Below, one piece after another: positions 1 to 13,050 of a stretch of DNA of 13,050 bases. Each line of letters begins with the position of its first letter. Within the stretch, counting starts at the first letter, position 1. Under the pieces are notes generated by a model that worked only from the letters and a program-made list of their open reading frames with translations, was not told the origin of the DNA and did not search any database. The stretch lies in IMG/VR virus record IMGVR_UViG_2671180360_000014; one strand, 5' to 3'. Source of the stretch: a virus. Its lineage: Duplodnaviria; Heunggongvirae; Uroviricota; Caudoviricetes. The position numbers and the translations under genes are program-made.

Positions 1-37
1 ATGCCACTTGCCCGTTATCTTTGCATTTTCATAAACG
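1..37. repeat. Left arm of 37-bp inverted repeat; candidate crossover site for the adjacent serine invertase
   Basis: Positions 1-37 (ATGCCACTTGCCCGTTATCTTTGCATTTTCATAAACG) are the exact reverse complement of 5727-5763. The repeat may continue beyond the window edge. Internal two-fold symmetry is weak (outer TTAT...ATAA only), so the exact core cannot be placed. Confidence 0.6.
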
Positions 38-540
38 AAAAAAAAAAACAACCCTCAGCATTACCTGTTGGGGTGCCTGTTCCATGGCCTTCAGCCACAC
101 CGCCAACAGGCTGGCTGAAATGCAACGGTGCGGCATTTTCTGCTGAAGAATACCCGGAACTGGCAAAGGCTTATCCAACAAATAAATTACCTGATTTACG
201 CGGTGAGTTTATTCGTGGATGGGATGATAGTCGTGGTATCGACAACGGGCGTGCGCTGCTTTCATCTCAAGGCCATTCACTCAGAGACCACTCACATAAC
301 CAGCAGATCTGGACAGGTTCAAATACAACATCGTCAACTATTGGTCAGGCCGGGAGTTATGCTCCGCTAGCAACTGGAGGGGATGGGGGGATTGCCTATA
401 CTGACCGGGAGCCTCAAAGCCTACCTTCAGCAGTAAGAGCTGTCAGCACTCGTGGGGTTGCTTCTGACAATGCAGCGAATATTGGCACTGAAACCCGCCC
501 GCGCAACATTGCATTTAACTACATCGTGAGGGCTGCATAA
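1..540 (+). CDS. Alternative tail-fibre C-terminal (variable) segment, tip A, with phage tail-collar-type motif; 5' end lies in the crossover repeat
   Basis: 179-aa ORF containing GWLKCNGAAFSAEEYPELAKAYPTNKLPDLRGEFIRGWDDSRGIDNGRALLSSQGHSLRDHSHN, the pattern of phage tail-collar domains at fibre C-termini. The first 12 codons are encoded by the inverted repeat, so the ATG at position 1 may not be the true start; the protein may be a fusion to an upstream constant part. Confidence 0.7.
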   Translation: MPLARYLCIFINEKKKQPSALPVGVPVPWPSATPPTGWLKCNGAAFSAEEYPELAKAYPTNKLPDLRGEFIRGWDDSRGIDNGRALLSSQGHSLRDHSHNQQIWTGSNTTSSTIGQAGSYAPLATGGDGGIAYTDREPQSLPSAVRAVSTRGVASDNAANIGTETRPRNIAFNYIVRAA

Positions 541-1142
541 TGACACAGGCAAAATTAAACAGTGAATTTATTGCCACAGTAGCGGGTGATATTACCGTCT
601 ATAACTATGACAACACGACACGGGAATACATTTCATCATCAACAGAATATCTTGCCGTTGGCGTCGGTATCCCGGCATGTTCTTGTTTAGATGCACCAGT
701 TACACATAAAGCTGGTTATGCAATCTGCCGTTCTGCAGATTTTAACTCATGGGAATATGTACCAGACCATCGCGGTGAAATCATCTATAGCACCGAAACA
801 GGAGAATCGAAAGAAATCACAGCTCCGGGTGATTACCCTGAAAATACAACCACTATCGCCCCGTTAACGCCATTCGATAAATGGGATGGTGAGAAATGGG
901 TGACGGATACCGAGGCACAGCATAGCGCCGCACTAGACGCGGCAGAAGCAAAGCGCCAGTCGCTGATTGATGCTGCAATGGCTTCCATCAGTCTGATTCA
1001 GATGAAATTACGGGCCGGGCGGAAGCTGACGCAGGCAGAAACCACCCGACTTAACGCTGTGCTGGATTACATTGACGCGGTGGAGGCAACAGATACCAGC
1101 ACCGCGCCTGATGTCATCTGGCCTGAACTGCCGGAGGCGTAG
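540..1142 (+). CDS. Tail fibre assembly chaperone (Tfa family) paired with fibre tip A
   Basis: 200-aa ORF. Start overlaps the upstream stop (TAATG) with a GAGG ribosome-binding site about 8 nt upstream. The C-terminus DKWDGEKWV...LNAVLDYIDAVEATDTSTAPDVIWPELPEA is a typical Tfa C-terminal domain. It sits directly downstream of a fibre tip, as in Mu U and e14 tfaE. Confidence 0.8.
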   Translation: MTQAKLNSEFIATVAGDITVYNYDNTTREYISSSTEYLAVGVGIPACSCLDAPVTHKAGYAICRSADFNSWEYVPDHRGEIIYSTETGESKEITAPGDYPENTTTIAPLTPFDKWDGEKWVTDTEAQHSAALDAAEAKRQSLIDAAMASISLIQMKLRAGRKLTQAETTRLNAVLDYIDAVEATDTSTAPDVIWPELPEA

Positions 1143-1915
1143 GCCATTCAATATCTGGCGCACCGGAAGTATCGACCAGTTCCAGTGCGTCCAGATAATC
1201 CAGCCACAAATTATATTGCACCAGTTCCTCACCTTTCAGGCGACCAATCGCCGCTTTACCAGGCCATTGCTTACTGTTTATGTATTCGTTGACCTGATTA
1301 ATCAATTGCTGCTTTTTCAGTTCGGCTGCGGCAATTTGTTCCTCATGAGTTGGCGGTGGAATATCAATCCATGCAGGCATTCCGTCGATGACACCTCTGT
1401 ATTTTCCTTCTGGTGCTTCCTTCATAAATTCGGCAGCAACAGTGTCGTCAATTTCGATTCCATCATCGGGCCATTCGCCGGATTCCTGATAAGCGATTTT
1501 AAGCTCCACAGGGAAAAACGCATTTTTATCGGCACTGAAAATATATTTCTGCATTTCTACCGTCCTATCGAAATATAACTGAATCTGTATTGCTGTGAGA
1601 TATCACTGGTTGCCACACGCCACGCTGAATTACTGATATGTTCAAAATTTACAGACAAAACCTGCGGGGCAGGAATCGACGGGTCTGACTGAACGGCATC
1701 AGACATAACACTGACTGAAACCATCGGCTGATTAGGGAATGGTATAGGGAAGTGTCCACTGATAAAGCGGGTCGTGTTTCCTGCAAAAGTGCCAAACTGA
1801 ACAATATATCCACCTGGTAGCCTGAACCATCCCGAACCAGAAGCGAATGCTCCCATATCCGGTATCTGATTATCTCCTGTGCCCACATCCCTTTTCGCCG
1901 CTTCTCCCAAACCAA
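660..1915. repeat. Copy 1 of a 1,256-bp perfect direct repeat (3' part of tfa-A, all of tfa-B, fibre tip B)
   Basis: ORF-track translations in several frames are identical between 660-1915 and 4471-5726 (constant offset 3811), implying near-100% nucleotide identity. Identity ends at 1915/5726 on one side and 660/4471 on the other. Confidence 0.85.
1114..1554 (-). CDS. Tail fibre assembly chaperone (Tfa family) paired with fibre H / tip B
   Basis: 146-aa ORF immediately downstream of H on the - strand (H stop 1557, tfa start 1554). C-terminus NLWLDYLDALELVDTSGAPDIEWPTPP is Tfa-like. Its 3' end overlaps the convergent tfa-A by 29 bp. Confidence 0.8.
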   Translation of the reverse strand: MQKYIFSADKNAFFPVELKIAYQESGEWPDDGIEIDDTVAAEFMKEAPEGKYRGVIDGMPAWIDIPPPTHEEQIAAAELKKQQLINQVNEYINSKQWPGKAAIGRLKGEELVQYNLWLDYLDALELVDTSGAPDIEWPTPPAVQAR

Positions 1916-2741
1916 GGTATGCGAGAAGACCGGCAACATCCTTTCCACTCAAATGAGTCAGCGTATTGTCCAGCGGTTGTTTACCTGCCAGCGCATTGTT
2001 AATGGTGGTGCTGAATTTCGGGTCATTGTTAATGGCCGCGGCAATTTCTTTCAGTGTGTCCAGCGTGTCAGGCGCACCGTTAATCAGAGCGGTAATAGCG
2101 GCCTGTACAAACGCAGTGGTCGCAATCCGCGTGGTGTTATTTCCTGCGGCAGGCGTCGGTGCTTTTGGTTCTCCGGTAAATGTCGGATTATGTTTCTGTG
2201 CATACTGGGTATGAGGGTCCTGTGCGGCAATGTGTTTGCTCATCTGGTCATCCACATACAGCCTTAATTCCAGGACTTCATCATCCACATATTTACGGGT
2301 CGCCAGTACCACCGACGGGTCGATTTTCAGCGTGATAGCTTCGGTATTCGTGACAACCAGAATCATGCGGATAGTCTGGGTACGACCACTGCCTTCCTGC
2401 AACTGCGGTTTGTACGTTTCCGGGCAGTTCGCCACCGCAATGAGTACGCCTTCATCATCATAAAGCCCAATCTCACGGATCCAGAATCCGCCCTCGTTCT
2501 CAGGGATGATTTGCTCCGCAATAATCTGACTCTGGTTGTTCGGGTCAACACTCAGAAGATTCAGCGGCGCGATGCGTTTCTGGTTAATCAGTTTTATCTG
2601 TGCCGGGTCTGGTGTCGGCAAGACACCATTCGCATCACCAACGGCCATTTGCGTCAGATTCAGCTTACTGCCGAGCATCGTCGCGTTAGCCAGCCGTGCT
2701 GCGCCCTGATTAGTCAGAATGGCGTAGTATTTCACTGTCAT
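1557..2741 (-). CDS. H: Tail fibre protein (P2 gpH-like N-terminus, tip B C-terminus)
   Basis: 394-aa ORF. The N-terminus MTVKYYAILTNQGAARLA...MAVGD...GGFWIREIGLYDDEGVLIAVAN...YKPQLQEGSGRTQT matches the conserved P2 H-family N-terminal domain. The start overlaps the stop of I (ATGA). Confidence 0.85.
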   Translation of the reverse strand: MTVKYYAILTNQGAARLANATMLGSKLNLTQMAVGDANGVLPTPDPAQIKLINQKRIAPLNLLSVDPNNQSQIIAEQIIPENEGGFWIREIGLYDDEGVLIAVANCPETYKPQLQEGSGRTQTIRMILVVTNTEAITLKIDPSVVLATRKYVDDEVLELRLYVDDQMSKHIAAQDPHTQYAQKHNPTFTGEPKAPTPAAGNNTTRIATTAFVQAAITALINGAPDTLDTLKEIAAAINNDPKFSTTINNALAGKQPLDNTLTHLSGKDVAGLLAYLGLGEAAKRDVGTGDNQIPDMGAFASGSGWFRLPGGYIVQFGTFAGNTTRFISGHFPIPFPNQPMVSVSVMSDAVQSDPSIPAPQVLSVNFEHISNSAWRVATSDISQQYRFSYISIGR

Positions 2742-3349
2742 GCGTTTACTCTCAGGTTATCAATTAAATGAATGGCCGAGGCCGGGAAATAATCCCCTCC
2801 GACAATAATGGCCTCCGGGGTGTAGGGATAAACCGTCAGGGCGTCGCCGTGATAGCATCCCGCACCGACAAAAATGTTGCCGGTTGTACTTAAACTGATA
2901 GCCAGTCCCGTCAGATGGCGGCTTGCAGGTTTTGCATCAGCAACGAGACGCTCCAGCTCCTGATACATTTCCTCGGTAATACCCTGCTCAAGCACGCCAA
3001 CAACGATGCGGAACGTCCCCGGCTCCTCGTTGAGCTGCCACCACTCCCTCACCTCAATCAGATAGCCGAGCGGCTCCACCACACGGCGAATCGCACCAAT
3101 AGTGCCCTTATGGCAGTGAATGAAATACGCATCGCGGATAACAGCGCGTTTTGTCGCTTCCGGCCACTTATCATCCCAGCGGTCAACCGAAAATGACCAC
3201 GCCAGCCACGGCAGCAGATTTGCCGGACAGGTATCCGGGTTCCACAGCTCACGAATACTGACCGGCGTTTTTTCAATTTCCGCACAGGCTCTTGCGGCGG
3301 CGACTTCAAGCGGTGATGAGCCGGTCGGCAGCAGGCGCGAATCACTCAT
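2738..3349 (-). CDS. I: Baseplate assembly protein gpI
   Basis: 203-aa ORF between J and H with coupled overlaps on both sides, matching the P2 J-I-H arrangement. N-terminus MSDSRLLPTGSSPLEVAAARACAEIEK is as I recall for the gpI family. Confidence 0.8.
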   Translation of the reverse strand: MSDSRLLPTGSSPLEVAAARACAEIEKTPVSIRELWNPDTCPANLLPWLAWSFSVDRWDDKWPEATKRAVIRDAYFIHCHKGTIGAIRRVVEPLGYLIEVREWWQLNEEPGTFRIVVGVLEQGITEEMYQELERLVADAKPASRHLTGLAISLSTTGNIFVGAGCYHGDALTVYPYTPEAIIVGGDYFPASAIHLIDNLRVNA

Positions 3350-4250
3350 CCGAGCCTCCGGTCACGACGCTGTATTCGGTGCAGAAAGACGCCTGCGTAC
3401 TGTTGAGCACAATGTCGGCCAGTGGTGCGGCCAGCTCGACACGCTGCACGCCTTCCACATGCAAAGCGGCATAAATGGCAGACAGACGGATGTCGCGCCC
3501 CAGCCGGTGCTGTGCCGTGATGTACGCTTCCAGTTTTTTCACGGCAGCAGCGCGGATGGGTTCGCTTTCAGGACCAGGGTAAAGGTAAAGCGTGGCGTTT
3601 ATCTGGTATTCAACGATGGCGGCAGACTGCACGGTCACGCGGTCGGCCACCGGCCTGACGTCCTCACCATTAAGGGCGTTGCGCACCACCGCCAGCAGGT
3701 CTTCGGATGCGATACCGTTATTTTCGCGAGACAGCACAGAGATAGTGACACAGGCCGGAGACGGACTGGTGACAGAGATATCCGCGACACGCCCGTCGGC
3801 ACTGCGACCATGATACTGATAGGCTCCCACTGACCCGGCGACGCTTAAACCTTCAAACGCCTGCTGAATACGCAGACGATAATCGGTGTCAGATTCCATC
3901 ACTGCCGGTGTCGGCGGGATAGTCGAATCATCTGCCGGGGTGATAATCAGGCGCGTGGTGTTGTAATTGGCACCAATCACATCAAGGTCATTACCGGCGG
4001 CACAGGCCAGCATTACCGCCCGTGCGGCCTCATTCACACGCTGACGCCAGATAAGCTCACGATAAGCATTTTCCTCCAGCAGTTTGACGAGAGGCTCAGA
4101 TTCCAGCATCAGGGTACGGGCGACCGCCTCCTGCTGGTCTTCCGGGTAAAGGGAAATCAGTGTCGCCTTGCGTTCGGCAAGAATGGTTTCAAAGTCCAGC
4201 TCCTCGACCACATCCGGTGCGGGTAGCTGGTTCAGGTCGATAATCGGCAT
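3342..4250 (-). CDS. J: Baseplate assembly protein gpJ
   Basis: 302-aa ORF, the same length as P2 gpJ, lying between W and I. It overlaps the I start by 8 bp. Confidence 0.85.
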   Translation of the reverse strand: MPIIDLNQLPAPDVVEELDFETILAERKATLISLYPEDQQEAVARTLMLESEPLVKLLEENAYRELIWRQRVNEAARAVMLACAAGNDLDVIGANYNTTRLIITPADDSTIPPTPAVMESDTDYRLRIQQAFEGLSVAGSVGAYQYHGRSADGRVADISVTSPSPACVTISVLSRENNGIASEDLLAVVRNALNGEDVRPVADRVTVQSAAIVEYQINATLYLYPGPESEPIRAAAVKKLEAYITAQHRLGRDIRLSAIYAALHVEGVQRVELAAPLADIVLNSTQASFCTEYSVVTGGSDE

Positions 4251-4254
4251 GGTT

Positions 4255-4497
4255 TCAACTCACAGGGATGGTTAACGAAAGTGGCTGGCCGGTGTCGTTG
4301 TGCTGACCGGTTAACGTGACCGTTATTCGCCCGTCAAAACTGCGCGCCGTGGTGACGGATGACAGGGTGACGCGGGGTTCCCATTTCAGCACCGCCATGT
4401 AACAGGCGACCTTAATCTGCAACTCAAGCGCCGGGGTCTGCGGCTGGTCAATCATTGACGCCAGCAAAAAGGCGTCGGTATCCCGGCATGTTCTTGT
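4255..4497 (-). pseudogene. W: Baseplate protein gpW fragment, N-terminally truncated at the repeat joint
   Basis: The reading frame is open from 4497 to the stop at 4255 but has no ATG; the ORF track starts it at TTG 4467. It is 70-80 codons against about 115 for gpW, and the upstream part runs into repeat copy 2 at 4471. It sits directly upstream of J as in P2. Confidence 0.55.
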
Positions 4498-4953
4498 TTA
4501 GATGCACCAGTTACACATAAAGCTGGTTATGCAATCTGCCGTTCTGCAGATTTTAACTCATGGGAATATGTACCAGACCATCGCGGTGAAATCATCTATA
4601 GCACCGAAACAGGAGAATCGAAAGAAATCACAGCTCCGGGTGATTACCCTGAAAATACAACCACTATCGCCCCGTTAACGCCATTCGATAAATGGGATGG
4701 TGAGAAATGGGTGACGGATACCGAGGCACAGCATAGCGCCGCACTAGACGCGGCAGAAGCAAAGCGCCAGTCGCTGATTGATGCTGCAATGGCTTCCATC
4801 AGTCTGATTCAGATGAAATTACGGGCCGGGCGGAAGCTGACGCAGGCAGAAACCACCCGACTTAACGCTGTGCTGGATTACATTGACGCGGTGGAGGCAA
4901 CAGATACCAGCACCGCGCCTGATGTCATCTGGCCTGAACTGCCGGAGGCGTAG
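4471..4953 (+). pseudogene. 5'-truncated copy of the tail fibre assembly gene tfa-A (3' 483 bp only)
   Basis: Corresponds to 660-1142 of the intact gene at 540-1142. The first 120 bp, the ribosome-binding site and the start codon are missing. The track ORF 4711-4953 is identical to the last 80 aa. Confidence 0.6.
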
Positions 4954-5365
4954 GCCATTCAATATCTGGCGCACCGGAAGTATCGACCAGTTCCAGTGCG
5001 TCCAGATAATCCAGCCACAAATTATATTGCACCAGTTCCTCACCTTTCAGGCGACCAATCGCCGCTTTACCAGGCCATTGCTTACTGTTTATGTATTCGT
5101 TGACCTGATTAATCAATTGCTGCTTTTTCAGTTCGGCTGCGGCAATTTGTTCCTCATGAGTTGGCGGTGGAATATCAATCCATGCAGGCATTCCGTCGAT
5201 GACACCTCTGTATTTTCCTTCTGGTGCTTCCTTCATAAATTCGGCAGCAACAGTGTCGTCAATTTCGATTCCATCATCGGGCCATTCGCCGGATTCCTGA
5301 TAAGCGATTTTAAGCTCCACAGGGAAAAACGCATTTTTATCGGCACTGAAAATATATTTCTGCAT
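4925..5365 (-). CDS. Tail fibre assembly chaperone, second identical copy of tfa-B
   Basis: 146-aa translation identical to that of 1114-1554. Confidence 0.75.
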   Translation of the reverse strand: MQKYIFSADKNAFFPVELKIAYQESGEWPDDGIEIDDTVAAEFMKEAPEGKYRGVIDGMPAWIDIPPPTHEEQIAAAELKKQQLINQVNEYINSKQWPGKAAIGRLKGEELVQYNLWLDYLDALELVDTSGAPDIEWPTPPAVQAR

Positions 5366-5367
5366 TT

Positions 5368-5766
5368 CTACCGTCCTATCGAAATATAACTGAATCTGTA
5401 TTGCTGTGAGATATCACTGGTTGCCACACGCCACGCTGAATTACTGATATGTTCAAAATTTACAGACAAAACCTGCGGGGCAGGAATCGACGGGTCTGAC
5501 TGAACGGCATCAGACATAACACTGACTGAAACCATCGGCTGATTAGGGAATGGTATAGGGAAGTGTCCACTGATAAAGCGGGTCGTGTTTCCTGCAAAAG
5601 TGCCAAACTGAACAATATATCCACCTGGTAGCCTGAACCATCCCGAACCAGAAGCGAATGCTCCCATATCCGGTATCTGATTATCTCCTGTGCCCACATC
5701 CCTTTTCGCCGCTTCTCCCAAACCAACGTTTATGAAAATGCAAAGATAACGGGCAAGTGGCATCAT
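5368..5766 (-). CDS. Tail-fibre C-terminal (variable) segment tip B, cassette copy; 5' end lies in the crossover repeat and it lacks the H constant part in cis
   Basis: 132-aa ORF whose last 119 aa (VGLGEAAKRDVGTGDN...ISIGR) are identical to the C-terminus of H (1557-2741). Its first 13 codons (MMPLARYLCIFIN) are encoded by the inverted repeat. Confidence 0.65.
   Translation of the reverse strand: MMPLARYLCIFINVGLGEAAKRDVGTGDNQIPDMGAFASGSGWFRLPGGYIVQFGTFAGNTTRFISGHFPIPFPNQPMVSVSVMSDAVQSDPSIPAPQVLSVNFEHISNSAWRVATSDISQQYRFSYISIGR
5727..5763. repeat. Right arm of 37-bp inverted repeat; candidate crossover site about 30 bp upstream of the invertase gene
   Basis: Exact reverse complement of 1-37. 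Its position next to the invertase start resembles gixR-gin in Mu and the e14 pin arrangement. Confidence 0.6.
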
Positions 5767-5793
5767 CTCCGGTTTTTATTCAGGGGGATGCTC

Positions 5794-6387
5794 ATGTTTA
5801 TTGGCTATGTACGCGTATCAACAAATGACCAGAACACGGAATTGCAGCGTAACGCGCTGGAATGCGCGGGATGTGAGCGGATTTTTGAGGACAAAATCAG
5901 CGGCACGAAGTCCGACAGGCCGGGGCTGAAAAAACTGCTCAGGACATTATCGGAGGGGGATACACTGGTAGTCTGGAAGCTGGACCGGCTGGGGCGTAGT
6001 ATGCGGCATCTGGTCATTCTGGTTGAGGAACTGCGCGAACGTGGCATTAATTTTCGCAGCCTGACGGATGCTATTGATACCAGCACGCCGATGGGGCGTT
6101 TTTTCTTTCATGTGATGGGTGCCCTGGCTGAAATGGAACGAGAACTCATTGTCGAGCGGACTCGGGCCGGGCTGGAAGCGGCCAGAGCCAAAGGTCGTAT
6201 TGGTGGCAGACGTCCTAAACTCACCACGAGTGAGTGGGAGCAGGCCGGGCGTTTGCTGGCTGCAGGGGAGTCACGTCAACGCGTGGCACTGATTTTTGAT
6301 ATTGGTCTGTCCACGCTCTATAAAAAATTTCCCTCATCAGCGACAAAGAATAAATTGTGTCATCCCTTAGCCAACCGGGACAAATAG
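5794..6387 (+). CDS. Serine DNA invertase, Gin/Pin/Cin/Hin family (resolvase/invertase fold with C-terminal HTH)
   Basis: N-terminus MFIGYVRVSTNDQ carries the catalytic serine motif. TLVVWKLDRLGRS, MGRFFFHVMGALAEMERELIVERT and the C-terminal GLSTLYKKFP helix-turn-helix are hallmark motifs of this family. I prefer the ATG at 5794 (GGGGGA about 5 nt upstream) over the track start at 5788. Confidence 0.9.
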   Translation: MFIGYVRVSTNDQNTELQRNALECAGCERIFEDKISGTKSDRPGLKKLLRTLSEGDTLVVWKLDRLGRSMRHLVILVEELRERGINFRSLTDAIDTSTPMGRFFFHVMGALAEMERELIVERTRAGLEAARAKGRIGGRRPKLTTSEWEQAGRLLAAGESRQRVALIFDIGLSTLYKKFPSSATKNKLCHPLANRDK

Positions 6388-6446
6388 CCTGACATCTCCG
6401 GCACAACTGAAAATATCACTCACCCATTAACCACGGAGTTAAACGG

Positions 6447-7637
6447 ATGAGTGACTATCATCACGGCGTGCAGGTGCTGGAGATTAACGACGGCACCCGC
6501 GTCATTTCCACCGTATCCACTGCCATTGTCGGCATGGTCTGCACGGCCAGCGATGCGGATGCGGAAACCTTCCCCCTCAATAAACCGGTGCTGATTACCA
6601 ATGTGCAGAGTGCAATTGCAAAGGCTGGTAAAAAAGGCACGCTGGCGGCGTCGTTGCAGGCCATCGCTGACCAGTCAAAACCGGTCACCGTTGTCGTGCG
6701 TGTGGAAGACGGCACCGGCGAAGACGAGGAAACGAAACTTGCGCAGACCGTTTCCAATATCATCGGCACCACCGACGAAAACGGCCAGTACACCGGACTG
6801 AAAGCCCTGCTGGCGGCGGAGTCGGTAACCGGTGTTAAACCGCGTATTCTCGGCGTGCCGGGACTGGACACCAAAGAGGTGGCTGTTGCACTGGCATCAG
6901 TCTGTCAGAAGCTGCGCGCTTTCGGGTATATCAGCGCATGGGGCTGTAAAACCATTTCCGAGGTGAAAGCCTACCGTCAGAATTTCAGCCAGCGTGAGCT
7001 GATGGTCATCTGGCCGGATTTCCTCGCATGGGATACGGTCACCAGTACTACCGCCACCGCGTATGCCACCGCCCGTGCGCTGGGTCTGCGTGCCAGAATT
7101 GACCAGGAGCAGGGCTGGCATAAAACGCTGTCCAATGTCGGGGTGAACGGTGTTACCGGCATCAGCGCCTCTGTATTCTGGGATTTGCAGGAGTCCGGCA
7201 CCGATGCTGACTTGCTTAACGAGTCAGGCGTCACAACGCTGATTCGCCGCGACGGTTTCCGCTTCTGGGGTAACCGTACCTGCTCTGATGACCCGCTGTT
7301 CCTCTTTGAAAACTACACCCGCACCGCGCAGGTGCTGGCCGACACGATGGCTGAGGCGCACATGTGGGCGGTGGACAAGCCCATCACCGCAACGCTGATT
7401 CGCGACATCGTTGACGGCATCAATGCCAAATTCCGTGAGCTGAAAACAAACGGCTATATCGTGGATGCGACCTGCTGGTTCAGCGAAGAATCCAACGATG
7501 CGGAAACCCTCAAGGCCGGAAAACTGTATATCGACTACGACTATACACCGGTGCCTCCTCTTGAAAACCTGACCCTGCGCCAGCGTATTACCGATAAATA
7601 CCTGGCAAATCTGGTCACTTCGGTTAACAGCAATTAA
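6447..7637 (+). CDS. FI: Contractile tail sheath protein gpFI
   Basis: 396 aa, the same length as P2 FI, with N-terminus MSDYHHGVQVLEINDGTRVISTV. A GGAG ribosome-binding site lies 8 nt upstream. It is the first gene of an FI-FII-E-T-U-D array. Confidence 0.92.
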   Translation: MSDYHHGVQVLEINDGTRVISTVSTAIVGMVCTASDADAETFPLNKPVLITNVQSAIAKAGKKGTLAASLQAIADQSKPVTVVVRVEDGTGEDEETKLAQTVSNIIGTTDENGQYTGLKALLAAESVTGVKPRILGVPGLDTKEVAVALASVCQKLRAFGYISAWGCKTISEVKAYRQNFSQRELMVIWPDFLAWDTVTSTTATAYATARALGLRARIDQEQGWHKTLSNVGVNGVTGISASVFWDLQESGTDADLLNESGVTTLIRRDGFRFWGNRTCSDDPLFLFENYTRTAQVLADTMAEAHMWAVDKPITATLIRDIVDGINAKFRELKTNGYIVDATCWFSEESNDAETLKAGKLYIDYDYTPVPPLENLTLRQRITDKYLANLVTSVNSN

Positions 7638-7649
7638 GGAGCCTGACCG

Positions 7650-8168
7650 ATGGCAATGCCGCGCAAACTCAAGTTAATGAACGTCTTTCTGAACGGCTAC
7701 AGCTATCAGGGCGTTGCAAAGTCCGTCACGCTGCCAAAACTGACCCGTAAGCTCGAAAACTATCGCGGTGCGGGGATGAACGGCAGCGCACCGGTAGACC
7801 TCGGCCTTGATGACGATGCGCTGTCAATGGAGTGGTCGCTCGGGGGCTTCCCGGATTCGGTTATCTGGGAGCTCTACGCCGCAACCGGTGTGGATGCCGT
7901 ACCGATTCGTTTTGCAGGCTCTTACCAGCGCGACGATACCGGCGAAACGGTGGCCGTCGAGGTGGTCATGCGTGGACGTCAGAAAGAAATCGACACCGGC
8001 GAGGGTAAACAGGGAGAAGACACCGAGTCGAAAATCTCCGTGGTCTGCACCTATTTCCGGTTGACGATGGACGGTAAGGAGCTGGTCGAAATCGACACCA
8101 TCAACATGATTGAGAAGGTGAACGGCGTCGACCGGCTGGAGCAACACCGCCGCAATATCGGCCTGTGA
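7650..8168 (+). CDS. FII: Tail tube protein gpFII
   Basis: 172 aa, the same length as P2 FII, with N-terminus MAMPRKLKLMNVFLNGYSYQGVAKSV. An AAGGAG ribosome-binding site lies 8 nt upstream. Confidence 0.92.
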   Translation: MAMPRKLKLMNVFLNGYSYQGVAKSVTLPKLTRKLENYRGAGMNGSAPVDLGLDDDALSMEWSLGGFPDSVIWELYAATGVDAVPIRFAGSYQRDDTGETVAVEVVMRGRQKEIDTGEGKQGEDTESKISVVCTYFRLTMDGKELVEIDTINMIEKVNGVDRLEQHRRNIGL

Positions 8169-8224
8169 TTTTCATACGGTCAGCCAGGCTGACCGGTTAA
8201 CCCTGATTCAGAAGTGAGAAAACC

Positions 8225-8500
8225 ATGAACAAAGAAAATGTCATTACCCTGGAAAATCCGGTCAAACGTGGTGAGCAGGTTATCGAACAGGTCACGCTGA
8301 TGAAACCCAGTGCCGGGACGCTGCGCGGTGTCAGTCTGGCTGCGGTCGCAAACTCCGAAGTCGATGCACTGATTAAAGTGCTGCCGCGCATGACGGCACC
8401 GATGCTGACCGAGCAGGAAGTCGCCGCGCTGGAACTGCCTGACCTTGTGGCGCTGGCCGGTAAGGTGGTCGGTTTTTTGTCGCCGAACTCGGTGCAGTAA
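8225..8500 (+). CDS. E: Tail assembly chaperone gpE (zero-frame product)
   Basis: 91 aa, the same length as P2 E. It sits between the tube gene and the tape measure gene and ends just after the slippery heptamer. Confidence 0.85.
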   Translation: MNKENVITLENPVKRGEQVIEQVTLMKPSAGTLRGVSLAAVANSEVDALIKVLPRMTAPMLTEQEVAALELPDLVALAGKVVGFLSPNSVQ

Positions 8501-8652
8501 CGTTTCCGAAAAATCTCTCGGTCGATGACCTGATGGCGGATGTGGCAGTGATATTTCACTGGCCGCCATCAGAACTGTATCCCATGAGCCTGACCGAACT
8601 CATCACATGGCGCGAAAGGGCGCTCCGGCGAAGCGGAAACACGAATGAGTAA
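8225..8652 (+). CDS. E': Tail assembly chaperone gpE+E', made by programmed -1 ribosomal frameshift at 8473-8479
   Basis: After slippage at T TTT TTG, the -1 frame reads VAELGAVTFPKNLSVDDLMADVAVIFHWPPSELYPMSLTELITWRERALRRSGNTNE and stops at 8650-8652, overlapping the T start at 8645. Total length is 85+57 = 142 aa, as I recall for P2 E+E'. Confidence 0.75.
8473..8479 (+). promoter_or_regulatory. -1 programmed frameshift slippery heptamer T_TTT_TTG
   Basis: X XXY YYZ heptamer in the E zero frame (GGT TTT TTG) near the 3' end of E, the conserved position for tail-chaperone frameshifts between the tube and tape measure genes. Confidence 0.75.
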
Positions 8653-11092
8653 CAATGTAAAATTACAGGTATTGCTCAGGGCTGTTGACCAGGCATCCCG
8701 CCCGTTTAAATCCATCCGCACAGCGAGCAAGTCGCTGTCGGGGGATATCCGGGAAACACAAAAATCACTGCGCGAGCTGAACGGTCAGGCATCCCGTATT
8801 GAGGGATTTCGCAAGACCAGTGCACAGCTCGCCGTGACTGGTCATGCACTTGAAAAGGCTCGACAGGAGGCCGAAGCCCTTGCCACACAGTTTAAAAACA
8901 CCGAACGTCCGACCCGTGCTCAGGCGAAAGTGCTGGAATCCGCAAAGCGTGCGGCGGAGGACTTACAGGCGAAATATAACCGCCTGACGGATTCCGTTAA
9001 ACGCCAGCAGCGGGAACTGGCCGCTGTGGGAATTAATACCCGCAATCTTGCACATGATGAGCAGGGGCTGATAAACCGTATCAGTGAAACCACCGCACAA
9101 CTTAACCGTCAGCGCGACGCACTGGCGCGTGTCAGTGCACAACAGGCAAAACTTAACGCAGTCAAACAGCGTTATCAGGCCGGAAAGGAACTGGCCGGAA
9201 ATATGGCCTCAGTGGGCGCTGCCGGTGTGGGGATTGCTGCTGCGGGAACGATGGCCGGAGTTAAGTTGCTGATGCCCGGTTATGAGTTTGCGCAGAAAAA
9301 CTCAGAATTGCAGGCCGTGCTAGGTGTGGCAAAAGACTCCGCCGAAATGACCGCACTACGCAAACAGGCGCGCCAGCTCGGCGACAATACCGCCGCCTCG
9401 GCGGATGATGCGGCCGGTGCACAGATAATCATCGCGAAAGCGGGTGGGGATGTTGATGCCATTCAGGCGGCAACGCCGGTCACGCTGAATATGGCGCTGG
9501 CGAACCGCCGCACGATGGAAGAAAACGCCGCCCTGCTGATGGGGATGAAATCCGCCTTTCAGCTTTCAAACGATAAGGTCGCTCATATCGGGGATGTTCT
9601 CTCCATGACGATGAACAAAACCGCCGCCGATTTTGACGGCATGAGCGATGCGCTGACCTATGCCGCACCTGTGGCAAAAAATGCCGGTGTCAGCATTGAA
9701 GAAACCGCCGCAATGGTCGGGGCGCTGCATGATGCAAAAATCACAGGCTCAATGGCGGGGACGGGAAGCCGTGCCGTGTTAAGCCGCCTGCAGGCACCGA
9801 CGGGAAAAGCATGGGATGCACTCAAAGAGCTTGGAGTGAAAACCTCAGACAGCAAGGGAAACACCCGGCCAATATTTACCATTCTGAAAGAAATGCAGGC
9901 CAGTTTTGAGAAAAACCGGCTCGGTACTGCCCAGCAGGCTGAATACATGAAAACTATTTTCGGGGAGGAGGCCAGCTCAGCCGCCGCCGTGCTGATGACT
10001 GCCGCCTCAACCGGAAAGCTGGACAAACTGACCGCTGCGTTTAAAGCCTCAGACGGGAAGACTGCCGAGCTGGTAAATATCATGCAGGACAACCTCGGCG
10101 GTGACTTTAAGGAGTTTCAGTCCGCTTATGAGGCGGTGGGGACAGACCTGTTTGACCAGCAGGAAGGCGCACTGCGTAAGCTCACGCAGACGGCCACAAA
10201 GTATGTGTTAAAACTCGACGGCTGGATCCAGAAAAACAAATCACTGGCGTCAACCATCGGCCTCATTGTCGGTGGCGCGCTGGCGCTTATTGGCATCATC
10301 GGTGCCATTGGTCTTGTAGCCTGGCCGGTTATCACTGGCATCAATGCCATCATCGCGGCAGCAGGCGCAATGGGGGCAGTCTTCACGACGGTTGGCAGTG
10401 CTGTTATGACCGCCATCGGGGCGATTAGCTGGCCGGTTGTGGCCGTGGTGGCCGCCATTGTCGCCGGGGCGTTGCTTATCCGTAAATACTGGGAGCCTGT
10501 CAGCGCATTCTTTGGCGGTGTGGTGGAAGGGCTGAAAGCGGCATTTGCGCCGGTGGGGGAGCTGTTCTCGCCACTTAAGCCGGTGTTCGACTGGCTGGGC
10601 GAAAAGTTACAGGCCGCGTGGCAGTGGTTTAAAAACCTGATTGCCCCGGTCAAAGCCACTCAGGACACCCTGAACAGTTGCCGTGACACGGGGGTCATGT
10701 TCGGGCAGGCACTGGCTGACGCGCTGATGCTGCCGCTTAATGCGTTCAACAAACTGCGCAGCGGTATTGACTGGGTACTGGAAAAACTCGGTGTTATCAA
10801 CAAAGAGTCAGACACACTTGACCAGACCGCCGCCAGAACTCAAGCCGCCACGTATGGCAGCGGTGGTTATATTCCGGCGACCAGCTCTTATGCAGGCTAT
10901 CAGGCTTATCAGCCGGTCACGGCACCGGCTGGCCGCTCTTATGTGGACCAGAGTAAAAACGAATATCACATCAGCCTGACGGGGGGGACTGCGCCGGGGA
11001 CACAGCTCGACCGCCAGTTACAGGATGCGCTCGAAAAATACGAGCGGGATAAACGTGCGCGCGCCCGTGCCAGCATGATGCATGACGGTTAA
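8645..11092 (+). CDS. T: Tail tape measure protein gpT
   Basis: 815 aa, the same length as P2 T. It has a coiled-coil-rich N-terminal half and a hydrophobic glycine/alanine-rich stretch (LIVGGALALIGIIGAIGLVAWPVITGINAIIAAAGAMGAV). Its position after E/E' fits. Confidence 0.92.
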   Translation: MSNNVKLQVLLRAVDQASRPFKSIRTASKSLSGDIRETQKSLRELNGQASRIEGFRKTSAQLAVTGHALEKARQEAEALATQFKNTERPTRAQAKVLESAKRAAEDLQAKYNRLTDSVKRQQRELAAVGINTRNLAHDEQGLINRISETTAQLNRQRDALARVSAQQAKLNAVKQRYQAGKELAGNMASVGAAGVGIAAAGTMAGVKLLMPGYEFAQKNSELQAVLGVAKDSAEMTALRKQARQLGDNTAASADDAAGAQIIIAKAGGDVDAIQAATPVTLNMALANRRTMEENAALLMGMKSAFQLSNDKVAHIGDVLSMTMNKTAADFDGMSDALTYAAPVAKNAGVSIEETAAMVGALHDAKITGSMAGTGSRAVLSRLQAPTGKAWDALKELGVKTSDSKGNTRPIFTILKEMQASFEKNRLGTAQQAEYMKTIFGEEASSAAAVLMTAASTGKLDKLTAAFKASDGKTAELVNIMQDNLGGDFKEFQSAYEAVGTDLFDQQEGALRKLTQTATKYVLKLDGWIQKNKSLASTIGLIVGGALALIGIIGAIGLVAWPVITGINAIIAAAGAMGAVFTTVGSAVMTAIGAISWPVVAVVAAIVAGALLIRKYWEPVSAFFGGVVEGLKAAFAPVGELFSPLKPVFDWLGEKLQAAWQWFKNLIAPVKATQDTLNSCRDTGVMFGQALADALMLPLNAFNKLRSGIDWVLEKLGVINKESDTLDQTAARTQAATYGSGGYIPATSSYAGYQAYQPVTAPAGRSYVDQSKNEYHISLTGGTAPGTQLDRQLQDALEKYERDKRARARASMMHDG

Positions 11093-11106
11093 GGAGGTGA
11101 CGAAAA

Positions 11107-11586
11107 ATGATGCTCGCGTTAGGTATGTTTGTTTTTATGCGCCAGACGCTGCCACACCAGACCATGCAGCGTGAATCAGATTATCGCTGGCCGTCAAATT
11201 CCCGTATCGGCAAACGGGATGCCTTTCAGTTTCTCGGTGTGGGTGAGGAAAACATCACGCTGGCCGGTGTGCTTTATCCCGAACTGACCGGCGGCAAGCT
11301 GACGATGACCACGCTCAGGCTGATGGCAGAGGAAGGCCGGGCGTGGCCGTTGCTGGATGGCACCGGCATGATTTACGGCATGTATGTCATCAGTAAGGTG
11401 AGTGAAACAGGGAGTATTTTCTTTGCAGACGGCACACCCCGAAAAATTGATTTTACGCTGTCGCTCACCCGCGTTGATGAATCACTGGCCGCGCTTTATG
11501 GCGATATCGGTAAACAGGCGGAATCGCTCATCGGTAAGGCTGGCAATATGGCGACTAAATTCACGGGTATGACGGAGGCGGGATAA
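11107..11586 (+). CDS. U: Tail protein gpU
   Basis: 159 aa, the same length as P2 U. An AAGGAGG ribosome-binding site lies 9 nt upstream. Its stop overlaps the D start (TAATG). Confidence 0.88.
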   Translation: MMLALGMFVFMRQTLPHQTMQRESDYRWPSNSRIGKRDAFQFLGVGEENITLAGVLYPELTGGKLTMTTLRLMAEEGRAWPLLDGTGMIYGMYVISKVSETGSIFFADGTPRKIDFTLSLTRVDESLAALYGDIGKQAESLIGKAGNMATKFTGMTEAG

Positions 11587-12750
11587 TGCTGGATGCGCTG
11601 ACATTTGATGCAGGCAGTACGCTGACGCCGGATTACATGCTGATGCTCGACAGCAAGGATATTACCGGCAATATCAGCGACCGTCTGATGAGCATGACCC
11701 TGACGGATAACCGGGGCTTTGAGGCTGACCAGCTTGATATTGAACTGAACGACGCCGACGGGCAGGTCGGGCTACCGATTCGTGGCGCTGTCCTGACGGT
11801 GTATATCGGCTGGAAAGGTTTTGCCCTGGTATGCAAAGGGAAATTTACCGTTGATGAGGTTGAACACCGGGGCGCGCCGGATGTGGTTACCATCCGCGCC
11901 CGGAGTGCAGATTTCCGCGGGACGCTCAATTCCCGCCGTGAAGGCTCCTGGCATGACACCACGCTCGGTGCGATTGTTGAGGCGATAGCCTCCCGTAACA
12001 GGCTGGAAGCCAGTGTCGCTCCGTCACTGGCCGGAATTAAAATCCCGCACATCGACCAGTCGCAGGAGTCTGATGCGAAATTCCTGACCCGTCTTGCAGA
12101 ACGCAACGGCGGTGAGGTGTCGGTAAAAATGGGAAAACTGTTGTTTCTCAAAGCGGGGGCAGGGGGTGACGGCCAGCGGTAAAAAAATCCCGCAGATTAC
12201 CATCACCCGCAGCGACGGCGACCGTCATCATTTTGCGATTGCTGACCGTGGAGCCTATACCGGCGTAACGGCAAAGTGGCTTCACACCAAAGACCCGAAG
12301 CCGCAAAAGCAGAAGGTAAAACTGAAACGCAAAAAGAAAGAAAAACACCTGCGCGCACTGGAGCACCCAAAAGCGAAACCGGTCAGGCAGAAGAAAGCGC
12401 CAAAAGTACCGGAAGCGCGCGAAGGTGAATATATGGCCGGTGAGGCTGACAATGTTTTTGCCCTGACCACGGTATATGCCACGAAAGCGCAGGCCATGCG
12501 CGCCGCTCAGGCGAAGTGGGATAAACTGCAACGGGGCGTTGCGGAGTTCTCCATCAGCCTGGCTACCGGTCGGGCAGATATTTACACGGAAACACCGGTT
12601 AAAGTGTCAGGCTTTAAGCGCGTCATAGACGAGCAGGACTGGACAATCACTAAGGTGACACATTTTCTGAATAATAGCGGCTTCACGACGTCCCTGGAGC
12701 TTGAGGTCAGGCTTTCTGATGTGGAGTACGAAACAGAAGATGATGAGTGA
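11586..12750 (+). pseudogene. D: Tail protein gpD, disrupted by a +1 frame change in a G-run (or a homopolymer sequencing error)
   Basis: Two overlapping ORFs (11586-12182 in frame 0, 12166-12750 in frame +1) span 1165 nt, one more than the 1164 nt needed for 387 aa plus stop. Removing one G from GGGGG at 12155-12159 joins them into a 387-aa protein (...LLFLKAG/QGVTASGKKIPQ...), the length I recall for P2 gpD. Confidence 0.7.
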
Positions 12751-12768
12751 TGTATTTATTTTATCTGT

Positions 12769-12797
12769 TTGTTTTATAAGGATAAATTAACTAAAAT
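12769..12797 (+). promoter_or_regulatory. Candidate sigma70-type promoter for ogr (-35 TTGTTT, 17-bp spacer, -10 TAAAAT)
   Basis: TTGTTT at 12769-12774 and TAAAAT at 12792-12797 with a 17-bp spacer in the AT-rich D-ogr intergenic region. GGAAGAGG follows at 12816-12823 as a ribosome-binding site 8 nt before the ATG at 12832. Confidence 0.35.
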
Positions 12798-12831
12798 GGC
12801 ACCATCAACAAAACCGGAAGAGGTGCTCGCG

Positions 12832-13050
12832 ATGTTTCATTGTCCTTTATGCCAGCATGCCGCACATGCGCGTACAAGTCGCTATATCACTGACACGACA
12901 AAAGAGCGTTATCACCAGTGTCAGAACGTGAATTGCAGCGCCACGTTCATCACTTATGAGTCGGTACAGAGATACATCGTGAAGCCGGGAGAAGTCCACG
13001 CCGTGAGGCCGCACCCGTTGCCGTCAGGGCAGCAAATTATGTGGATGTAA
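12832..13050 (+). CDS. ogr: Late-gene transcriptional activator Ogr (zinc-finger, Ogr/Delta family)
   Basis: 72-aa product MFHCPLCQHAAHARTSRYITDTTKERYHQCQNVNCSATFITYESVQRY... with the Cys-X2-Cys...Cys-X4-Cys arrangement, matching P2 Ogr as I remember it. The track ORF 12769-13050 begins at an upstream TTG that lacks a ribosome-binding site. Confidence 0.9.
   Translation: MFHCPLCQHAAHARTSRYITDTTKERYHQCQNVNCSATFITYESVQRYIVKPGEVHAVRPHPLPSGQQIMWM

Follow-up and report, generated by a model that had tools for sequence, protein, structure and literature searches.

The stretch of DNA analysed here (13,050 nt at its full length, hereafter the window) carries tail genes of the P2 type together with the gene of a DNA invertase, two different tail-fibre tips with their chaperone genes and several repeated sequences. 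The following features were identified, listed by position:

1-37, minus strand: left copy of the invertase-proximal flank (arm 1), reverse complement of 5727-5763
1-540, plus strand: silent tip A cassette with a Collar domain (open reading frame and Pfam; compare the 442-aa H of the relatives L013 and L015)
26-51, plus strand: damaged crossover site at the flank/tip A junction, outer half TTTTCATAAACG intact
38-53, no strand: A-rich patch of 16 nt, AAAAAAAAAAACAACC in place of TTGGTTTGGGAGAAGG, in register, 66-81 nt from the scaffold end
540-1142, plus strand: tfaA, the tail-fibre assembly chaperone of tip A (Caudo_TAP; 88.5% identical to TfaE of e14)
1114-1554, minus strand: tfaB, the tail-fibre assembly chaperone of tip B (Caudo_TAP), converging with tfaA
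1557-2741, minus strand: complete tail-fibre gene H, 394 aa (constant Phage_tail_fib part plus tip B)
1902-1927, plus strand: intact 26-bp crossover site at the junction of the constant part of H and tip B, TTCTCCCAAACC AA GGTATGCGAGAA
2738-3349, minus strand: tail protein, P2 gpI-like (profile match)
3342-4250, minus strand: baseplate protein, P2 gpJ-like (profile match)
4255-4467, minus strand: 3' fragment of a gpW/gp25 baseplate gene (W'), 70 of 115 codons, ending at the scaffold gap
4468-4470, no strand: scaffold gap, NNN in CYDK01000007.1 and shown as AAA in the window
4471-5726, plus strand: second partial copy of the invertible segment, 100% identical, in the context of the other isomer
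5368-5766, minus strand: tip B at the invertase-side junction (Gp53-like_C domain)
5713-5738, plus strand: intact 26-bp crossover site at the tip B/flank junction, TTCTCCCAAACC AA CGTTTATGAAAA
5727-5763, plus strand: right copy of the invertase-proximal flank (arm 2), forming the repeat with arm 1
5794-6387, plus strand: Din-family serine DNA invertase, 197 aa, Ser9 (Pfam, structure match, BLAST)
6447-13050, plus strand: remaining P2-type tail operon with sheath FI, tube FII, E/E', tape measure T, U, D and ogr

The product of the complete gene H consists of a constant part (Hc, about codons 1-276, Phage_tail_fib) followed by tip B with its Gp53-like_C domain. In the open reading frame of tip A the first ~12 codons are read-through from the flank; the sequence that becomes joined to the constant part of H begins at about position 40, after the crossover core. 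The tip A gene call in the public record begins 3 nt before the 179-aa open reading frame of the window, and an exact look-up of the latter returned no record, whereas those of the frameshifted D and truncated W fragments led to the source. The first-pass annotation had described two differing tips and a convergent pair of tfa genes, and both descriptions hold: the tips carry a Collar and a Gp53-like_C domain, and the genes at 540-1142 (+) and 1114-1554 (-) both match Caudo_TAP. At the other end of the window gene D is split by an additional G (+1) at 12155, and a prophage with such a frameshifted D is probably tail-defective. In the public record ogr is followed by the chromosomal pflB.

The invertase assigned to 5794-6387 was confirmed by HMM search, with Resolvase (7e-53) and HTH_7 (8.5e-13) as Pfam domains and the catalytic serine present as Ser9 in the motif YVRVS9TNDQ. 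The structure of Mu Gin (3UJ3/4M6F) aligns with the protein from end to end (1e-94), and the identity amounts to 86% for PinE of e14 (158/184) and 77.5% for Gin of Mu (79.6% by tblastn). The protein is a small serine recombinase with a C-terminal HTH and stands near the founding members of the Din family. An even closer relative is the 97% identical recombinase of Peduovirus S164 (ON239131), which has the fibre genes on one side and the sheath gene on the other. The first 210 nt of the invertase gene, where a Fis-bound recombinational enhancer would be expected, are identical to pinE at 184 and to gin at 147 positions, which is the level expected from protein identity alone. A promoter scan around the invertase gave no signal above background, and a literature search for enhancer and Fis-site sequences returned none that was usable.

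The inverted repeat formed by 1-37 and 5727-5763 is perfect (37/37), as had been stated before, with about 1e-14 occurrences expected by chance in 13 kb according to our own arithmetic. Each arm comprises the outer flank and the outer half of one 26-bp crossover site, and the arms themselves are not recombination sites. Both belong to the same invertase-proximal side and neither is joined to the constant part of H; an inversion between the arms would leave the tip fused to H unchanged. The first-pass interpretation of the arms as the boundaries of the switch had to be given up, as each is a copy of the invertase-side flank, and the 5.7-kb arrangement exists only in a scaffold interrupted by NNN. 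Arm 1 is also not a complete arm, since it is cut by the start of the window and then by the start of the record 28 nt further left.

At the damaged site 26-51, AA AAAAAAAAACAA stands in place of the core and inner half, which are TT GGTTTGGGAGAA in all relatives. The site 5713-5738 is identical in 26 of 26 positions to the pinE-proximal site of e14. Together with the site 1902-1927 it forms the only intact pair in the window, and the two are in direct and not in inverted orientation. A scan of the window for further crossover sites, as expected for a multi-site system, returned these two and one weak chance match at 11458. Thus, the window as given lacks the two inverted sites of 12-2-12 form with matching cores on which an invertase of this family acts, whereas such a pair is present in a sister assembly described below. 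We attribute the missing inverted pair to the scaffold.

The source of the window is positions 29-13078 of CYDK01000007.1 (GCA_001285005.1; L019), which contain it completely apart from the NNN at 4468-4470. The first base of this scaffold lies 28 nt left of the window start. In the record the left flank copy measures 65 nt and extends to base 1, and the right copy of the inverted repeat continues to 5791. The arms are one flank present twice because of the NNN gap inside the scaffold and the record start just outside the window. A perfect direct repeat of 1,256 bp (660-1915 and 4471-5726) is situated between the 37-bp arms and stops exactly at the central AA (1914-1915) of the site 1902-1927. 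Its second copy contains the 3' 483 nt of tfaA, tfaB (4925-5365, minus strand) and tip B (5368-5726, minus strand). The region between the arms also holds the full H with tip B, I, J and the truncated W, all on the minus strand.

The A-rich patch at 38-53 is probably an assembly or gap-filling error. In exact scans the patch and the join of W' to tfaA across the gap were found in 0 of 5,426 complete E. coli genomes, and none was found in IMG/VR, GTDB representative genomes or JGI metagenomes; as the source record may have been withheld from some of these collections, the absence shows that both are not common, and nothing beyond that. Two other origins of the patch were considered and rejected. 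Recombination with a quasi-site does not fit, as exactly 16 bases are substituted and tip A then resumes without any shift of register, and a conversion of N to A does not apply to a position at which the public record itself reads A. A fold-back (palindromic) chimera at the gap was rejected as well, as its two sides map ~3.2 kb apart in the canonical prophage.

The canonical arrangement is found in the sister assembly CYED01000008.1 (L015; GCA_001284965.2), which matches all three blocks of the window with 100% identity, including the D frameshift, and has the region well inside a contig of 158 kb. Its crossover sites (2252-2277 and 4128-4153) are inverted, have the cores TT and AA and are 1,876 bp apart. 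In this assembly and in ~15 other loci the order is W, J, I and H, then the 1,876-bp segment, then the invertase and FI to ogr, and the co-directional P2-like order V W J I H (G) FI FII E E' T U D ogr occurs in L001-L015. In the window W'-J-I-H is opposite in strand to FI-ogr, and this holds only across the NNN gap.

A census of the junctions gave the same picture. The switch is covered across both of its boundaries in 15 natural P2-like loci, and the pair of junctions is legal in every one, with Hc/tip A plus flank/tip B in four loci (isomer 1) and Hc/tip B plus flank/tip A in 11 (isomer 2); Hc/tip B together with flank/tip B was found in the record of the window alone. Both types of junction are common, with 412 and 273 of the 5,426 complete E. 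coli genomes containing them. Prophages with 99.9% identity are known in both orientations, e.g., L013 versus L005 and L014, and H of the relatives measures 394 aa when it ends in a Gp53-like_C tip and 442 aa when the tip is of the Collar type (L013/L015). As in a genuine fibre switch, the alternative C-termini fuse in frame to a constant N-terminus and each has its own chaperone.

Taken together, we consider it highly probable that the locus is a standard host-range switch of the Pin/Gin type in a P2-like prophage (Peduovirus) of E. coli and that the window, a short-read scaffold and not a single DNA molecule, has both isomers joined across the NNN. In the true layout all late genes run in the same direction (V W J I H, the 1,876-bp segment, the invertase, FI FII E E' T U D ogr). 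Site 1 lies within H at about codon 276 and site 2 some 55 bp before the start of the invertase gene; the two are inverted relative to each other and have a common core dinucleotide. If the enzyme acts like Gin and Hin, its dimers at the two sites would synapse, cut the central dinucleotide, rotate by 180 degrees and religate. The inversion would swap the C-terminal cassette that is joined to the constant part of H, so that the isomer with the Collar tip would produce a 442-aa fibre and express tfaA, and the isomer with the Gp53-like tip a 394-aa fibre and tfaB. Read in reverse complement, positions 1-4467 then correspond to isomer 2, with the flank, tip A, tfaA, tfaB, the tip B form of H, I, J and a portion of W, and this left piece terminates at the scaffold end inside the invertase-side flank; 4471-13050 corresponds to isomer 1 from the middle of tfaA on. 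A scaffold built in this way from both isomers accounts for the inverted repeat of 37 bp (in fact 65 bp) as well as for the direct repeat of 1,256 bp. Beside the gap the two pieces end at arbitrary unique positions inside W and tfaA, and as a guess these ends could stem from a gap-filler advancing from both sides. The first-pass proposal of a Gin/Pin-type tip switch with one Tfa per tip in a P2-type tail module is therefore retained, and its anatomy is not.

Tip B stands at both junction types in this scaffold alone, which suggests that both isomers existed in the sequenced culture. Judging from the assembly, the culture most likely held both orientations of the segment and, if so, the switch was flipping there.

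The system closest to this switch is the P segment of e14 with PinE. Apart from the invertase and the proximal site, the two share the inner half and the TT core of the other site, as well as the layout of fibre gene, tfa, convergent tfa', silent tip and pin. Besides the similarity of TfaA and TfaE, tip A is 58% identical to StfE and TfaB 56% to TfaP. In contrast, e14 is a lambdoid remnant, whereas the switch described here lies in a P2-type myovirus tail module and has a tip B with Gp53-like_C. The segment measures 1,876 bp compared to 1,797 bp reported for e14 (PMC12529663). The P segment of e14 is also acted on in trans by PinQ, another enzyme of the Pin family. The G segment of Mu with Gin has the same architecture (Sc/Sv U, opposite-strand U' S'v, gin), with gin co-directional with the fibre gene, and the sites of this S-U-U'-S'-gin region have the same 12-2-12 form (TTnTCnnAAACC). 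It differs in the length of the segment (~3 kb versus 1.9 kb), the tip domains and the phage backbone. The C segment of P1 with Cin belongs beside the Mu system. For the P2-like prophages of EPEC E2348/69, sequencing and PCR have shown that both orientations coexist in clonal cultures (Goldberg et al., 2014, PMC4272514). These invertible tail-fibre loci agree with the present one both in the type of element and in the type of prophage, with no difference of substance; one of them has three inverted repeats and four variants, and the prophage described here is the simple two-site version.

The both-isomer scaffold was weighed against several other explanations. The scaffold could be an artefact in which the extra junction was contributed by a second, nearly identical P2-like prophage that is fixed in the other orientation in the same isolate, and not by inversion within a single prophage. 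Several P2-like copies are indeed frequent in E. coli genomes that match the window (median 2 places per genome, maximum 10-13). However, copies identical over many kb should have broken the assembly throughout the tail operon, and the right piece runs unbroken from tfaA over ogr to pflB, with the sister assembly having the whole region mid-contig. Therefore, we regard a second prophage as unlikely.

Explanations that take the deposited order at face value fare worse. We see little probability in a rearranged, D-defective prophage with three Pin crossover sites and an inverted boundary duplication of at least 65 bp around H-I-J-W'. Slightly less probable still is that the deposited layout is a real inverted partial duplication, with the invertase-side boundary present twice around a 5.7-kb block of H, I, J and part of W. 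The deposited sequence has exactly that order, and decayed or deleted versions of the prophage exist, e.g., L004/L012 and L020. Against this, the key junction is the NNN gap and the other end is the scaffold terminus, the combination of junctions occurs in no other locus, the sister assembly shows the canonical order in a prophage of 100% identity, and the W'/tfaA join and the A-rich patch are beyond the reach of conservative site-specific recombination.

The first-pass model, in which the invertase would recombine the 37-bp repeats and so flip a host-range segment of 5.7 kb, is practically negligible. The repeat is perfect and only 30 bp away from the invertase gene, but its arms are one and the same outer flank, so that in neither of them a tip meets the constant part of H. 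Core and inner half are missing from the left site, the intact pair is in direct orientation, and the interval includes the scaffold gap and the 1,256-bp duplication; the sites of the relatives are 1,876 bp apart.

We therefore return to the two-site switch in a both-isomer scaffold, which has consequences for the reading of similar records. Segments that flip in culture lead short-read assemblers and scaffolders to chimeras of both isomers, and these mimic large segments with long inverted repeats. The change of N to A during preparation of the window conceals scaffold gaps, and an inverted repeat that reaches the end of a window or contig should not be read as a complete arm. If the deposited order were true, the invertase or homologous recombination could invert or delete a baseplate and fibre block of 3.8-5.7 kb, and the locus would be a multi-site system instead of a simple two-state switch.

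The type of switch is already known from e14 Pin, Mu Gin and the P2-like prophages of EPEC, and biologically it is nothing new. It had been regarded as unusual, P2 itself having no invertase. This view is untenable: 592 of the 5,426 complete E. coli genomes contain at least 80% of window positions 4300-13050, an interval in which the recombinase gene lies, and inversion in P2-like prophages has been demonstrated experimentally (PMC4272514). It is possible that the cassette, being e14-like in TfaA and tip A, also serves the host in the manner of PinQ/StfE2, a system reported to stop adsorption of phage T2 (PMC12529663). Fibre switches of the Pin/Gin type are widespread among P2-like prophages of E. 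coli and experimentally shown, and the scaffold chimera described here indirectly indicates activity of the switch in the sequenced culture, despite the frameshifted D.

The genes of the window, as read from the ORF map and Pfam, are those of a P2-type tail region, with two intact crossover sites in its left half.

1-540, +, tip A, Collar domain
540-1142, +, tfaA (chaperone gene)
1114-1554, -, tfaB (chaperone gene)
1557-2741, -, complete fibre gene H, Phage_tail_fib N-terminus and Gp53-like_C tip
1902-1927, crossover site inside H, junction of the constant part (Hc) and tip B, TTCTCCCAAACC AA GGTATGCGAGAA
2738-3349, -, gpI
3342-4250, -, gpJ
4255-4467, -, gpW 3' fragment (W')
from 4471, tfaA (3' part), second copy
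4925-5365, -, tfaB, second copy
5368-5766, -, tip B, second copy
5713-5738, crossover site, junction of tip B and the invertase-side boundary (flank), TTCTCCCAAACC AA CGTTTATGAAAA
5794-6387, +, serine invertase, Resolvase and HTH_7 (Pfam)
6447-7637, +, sheath FI
7650-8168, +, tube FII
next in order, +, E/E'
8645-11092, +, tape measure T
next in order, +, U
11586-12750, +, D, two ORFs with a break at 12155
12769-13050, +, ogr, mechanical ORF

The invertase, assigned to the Gin/Pin family in the first-pass annotation, is genuine, with Resolvase and HTH_7 domains and the motif YVRVS9TNDQ. It matches the Mu Gin structures 3UJ3 and 4M6F at 1e-94; its identity with PinE of e14 is 86%, and with Gin 77.5%. 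The first 210 nt of the gene agree with pinE at 184 positions, a level that follows from the protein similarity, and a scan for a promoter upstream gave no convincing candidate. To the left of the invertase the arrangement is less simple than first described; H, I, J, W and a perfect direct repeat of 1,256 bp (660-1915 = 4471-5726) had gone unmentioned. At the other end, the ogr ORF begins with TTG and encodes 93 aa; annotated relatives mostly use an internal ATG (window 12832), giving 72 aa. D is split into ORFs of 198 and 194 aa by one extra G in GCGGGGGCAGGGGG, compared with 387 aa in the related locus L013. As the frameshift is common to the assemblies L015, L016 and L019, it is not a private error; the prophage probably cannot make tails, although its invertase is intact.

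The inverted repeat at 1-37 and 5727-5763 is perfect and far beyond chance, but its 37-bp arms had been mistaken for the crossover sites. The real sites are of the 26-bp Din type (12-2-12), and the one at 5713-5738 agrees at 26/26 positions with the site next to pinE in e14. In both sites the central AA is the exact end of the 1,256-bp repeat, which is what exchange at the core would produce. Each 37-bp "arm" thus consists of an outer half-site and the spacer that leads to the invertase gene. The two intact sites are direct repeats. The site at the left arm (26-51) retains its outer half, but for core and inner half it has AA AAAAAAAAACAA, against TT GGTTTGGGAGAA in every relative. Core and inner half are replaced in register by a 16-nt A-rich patch (window 38-53, AAAAAAAAAAACAACC), which is seen in this record only, 66-81 nt in from the end of the scaffold.

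In complete E. coli genomes the close relatives (L001, L002) show a simple co-directional layout, in the order V W J I H tfa, opposite-strand tfa' and tip', then recombinase, FI to D and ogr. The sister assembly L015 (CYED01000008.1), in which the locus lies mid-contig (158 kb), reads J, I, H (442 aa, Collar tip), tfaA, tfaB (-), tip B (132-aa ORF, -) and invertase, followed by FI to D (frameshifted as in the window), ogr and pflB. Its crossover sites at 2252-2277 (TTCTCGCATACC TT GGTTTGGGAGAA) and 4128-4153 are inverted with matching cores, 1,876 bp apart from centre to centre. Three blocks of the window match L015 at 100%.

Window 54-1915, L015 2280-4141
Window 1901-4178, reverse complement of L015 1-2278
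Window 4471-13050, L015 2886-11465

In the window, then, isomer 2 (Hc on tip B) appears as its reverse complement, from W' to the flank; a gap follows, and after it comes isomer 1 (Hc on tip A) from the middle of tfaA onward.

The source was found by exact-protein look-ups. They placed the frameshifted D fragment in L015 and a Logan contig, and truncated W together with truncated TfaA in CYDK01000007.1 of GCA_001285005.1 (L017/L019). The window equals L019 29-13078, the sole difference being NNN in the record for AAA at 4468-4470; this rendering of N as A had hidden the scaffold gap from the first reading. The record begins 28 nt left of the window, and in it the inverted repeat measures 65 nt and reaches base 1. 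What joins W' to tfaA is therefore a scaffold gap, and the left arm marks a scaffold terminus. The proposed 5.7-kb geometry with 37-bp arms is an assembly artefact.

All fetched loci were sorted by the four possible junctions. Every natural P2-like locus spanning both boundaries has a legal pair, either Hc|tipA with flank|tipB (L002, L010, L013, L015) or Hc|tipB with flank|tipA (L001, L003-L009, L011, L012, L014); among the fetched loci, Hc|tipB together with flank|tipB occurs in the window's record only. Prophages 99.9% identical to the window exist in both orientations (e.g., L013 versus L005/L014), and Hc|tipA is spanned in 412 and Hc|tipB in 273 of 5,426 complete E. coli genomes.

Near-identical prophages lie at two chromosomal places, on the side of pflB-focA-ycaO or of a U32 peptidase gene (region after ogr; L003, L007, L009, L011 versus L002, L005, L013, L015, L019). 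In GCA_012702095.1 (L004/L012; locus 2200-5400, 13400-14700) the same prophage has large internal deletions, with the sheath truncated and tube, T, U and D gone, and a gene trio with CTD9, MC5 and AAA_23 domains, possibly defence cargo in a P2 hotspot, adjoins replication gene A. A decayed relative (L020, Logan SRR9160196_21, 3178-4466) carries a fragment of the capsid-scaffold gene O fused to the 3' part of tfaA; it lacks the tip B ORF and keeps the invertase.

The most economical explanation is that both isomers were present in the culture when it was sequenced. In that case the assembly graph would fork at either crossover site, and pieces of different isomers may have been joined during scaffolding or gap-filling. 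Base 1 of the Logan contig ERR178186_372 (L016), an independent contig of unitig style, is window 5713, exactly at a crossover site; this is the branch expected from both orientations in the reads and hints at a mixed culture. An extra junction from a second prophage copy is a minor alternative. Both flank copies (window 5743 and 21) share one base, in the context CTTTGC, that differs from L013 and L014 (CTCTGC), which is consistent with a single prophage in one sample as the source of both. A real rearrangement is likewise a minor alternative. The W'|tfaA join and the A-rich patch occur in 0 of 5,426 complete E. coli genomes and were not found in IMG/VR, GTDB representative genomes or JGI metagenomes; as some of these collections may lack the source itself, this means only that they are not common.

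The switch system itself is already known. As had been proposed, the layout matches the Mu G segment and the e14 P segment; the cassette is partly homologous to that of e14 (TfaA and TfaE 88.5% identical, tip A and StfE 58%, TfaB and TfaP 56%). The deposited Peduovirus S164 has, at the corresponding position, a recombinase with 97% identity, and at least 80% of window 4300-13050, including the recombinase gene, is present in 592 of 5,426 E. coli genomes. Invertible fibre loci have been described in P2-like prophages, and flipping in clonal cultures has been shown (PMC4272514). Here we see the invertase family, two sites with their geometry, two converging chaperone genes, alternative in-frame forms of H (394 or 442 aa), and both orientations in nature. 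By analogy with Hin and Gin, invertase dimers on the two sites would form a synapse with an enhancer, bound by Fis, towards the 5' end of the invertase gene, and would then cut at the central dinucleotide, rotate and religate. With an exchange point at about codon 276 of H, inversion would replace 118 C-terminal residues (the Gp53-like tip, expressed together with tfaB) by 166 others (the Collar tip, expressed together with tfaA).
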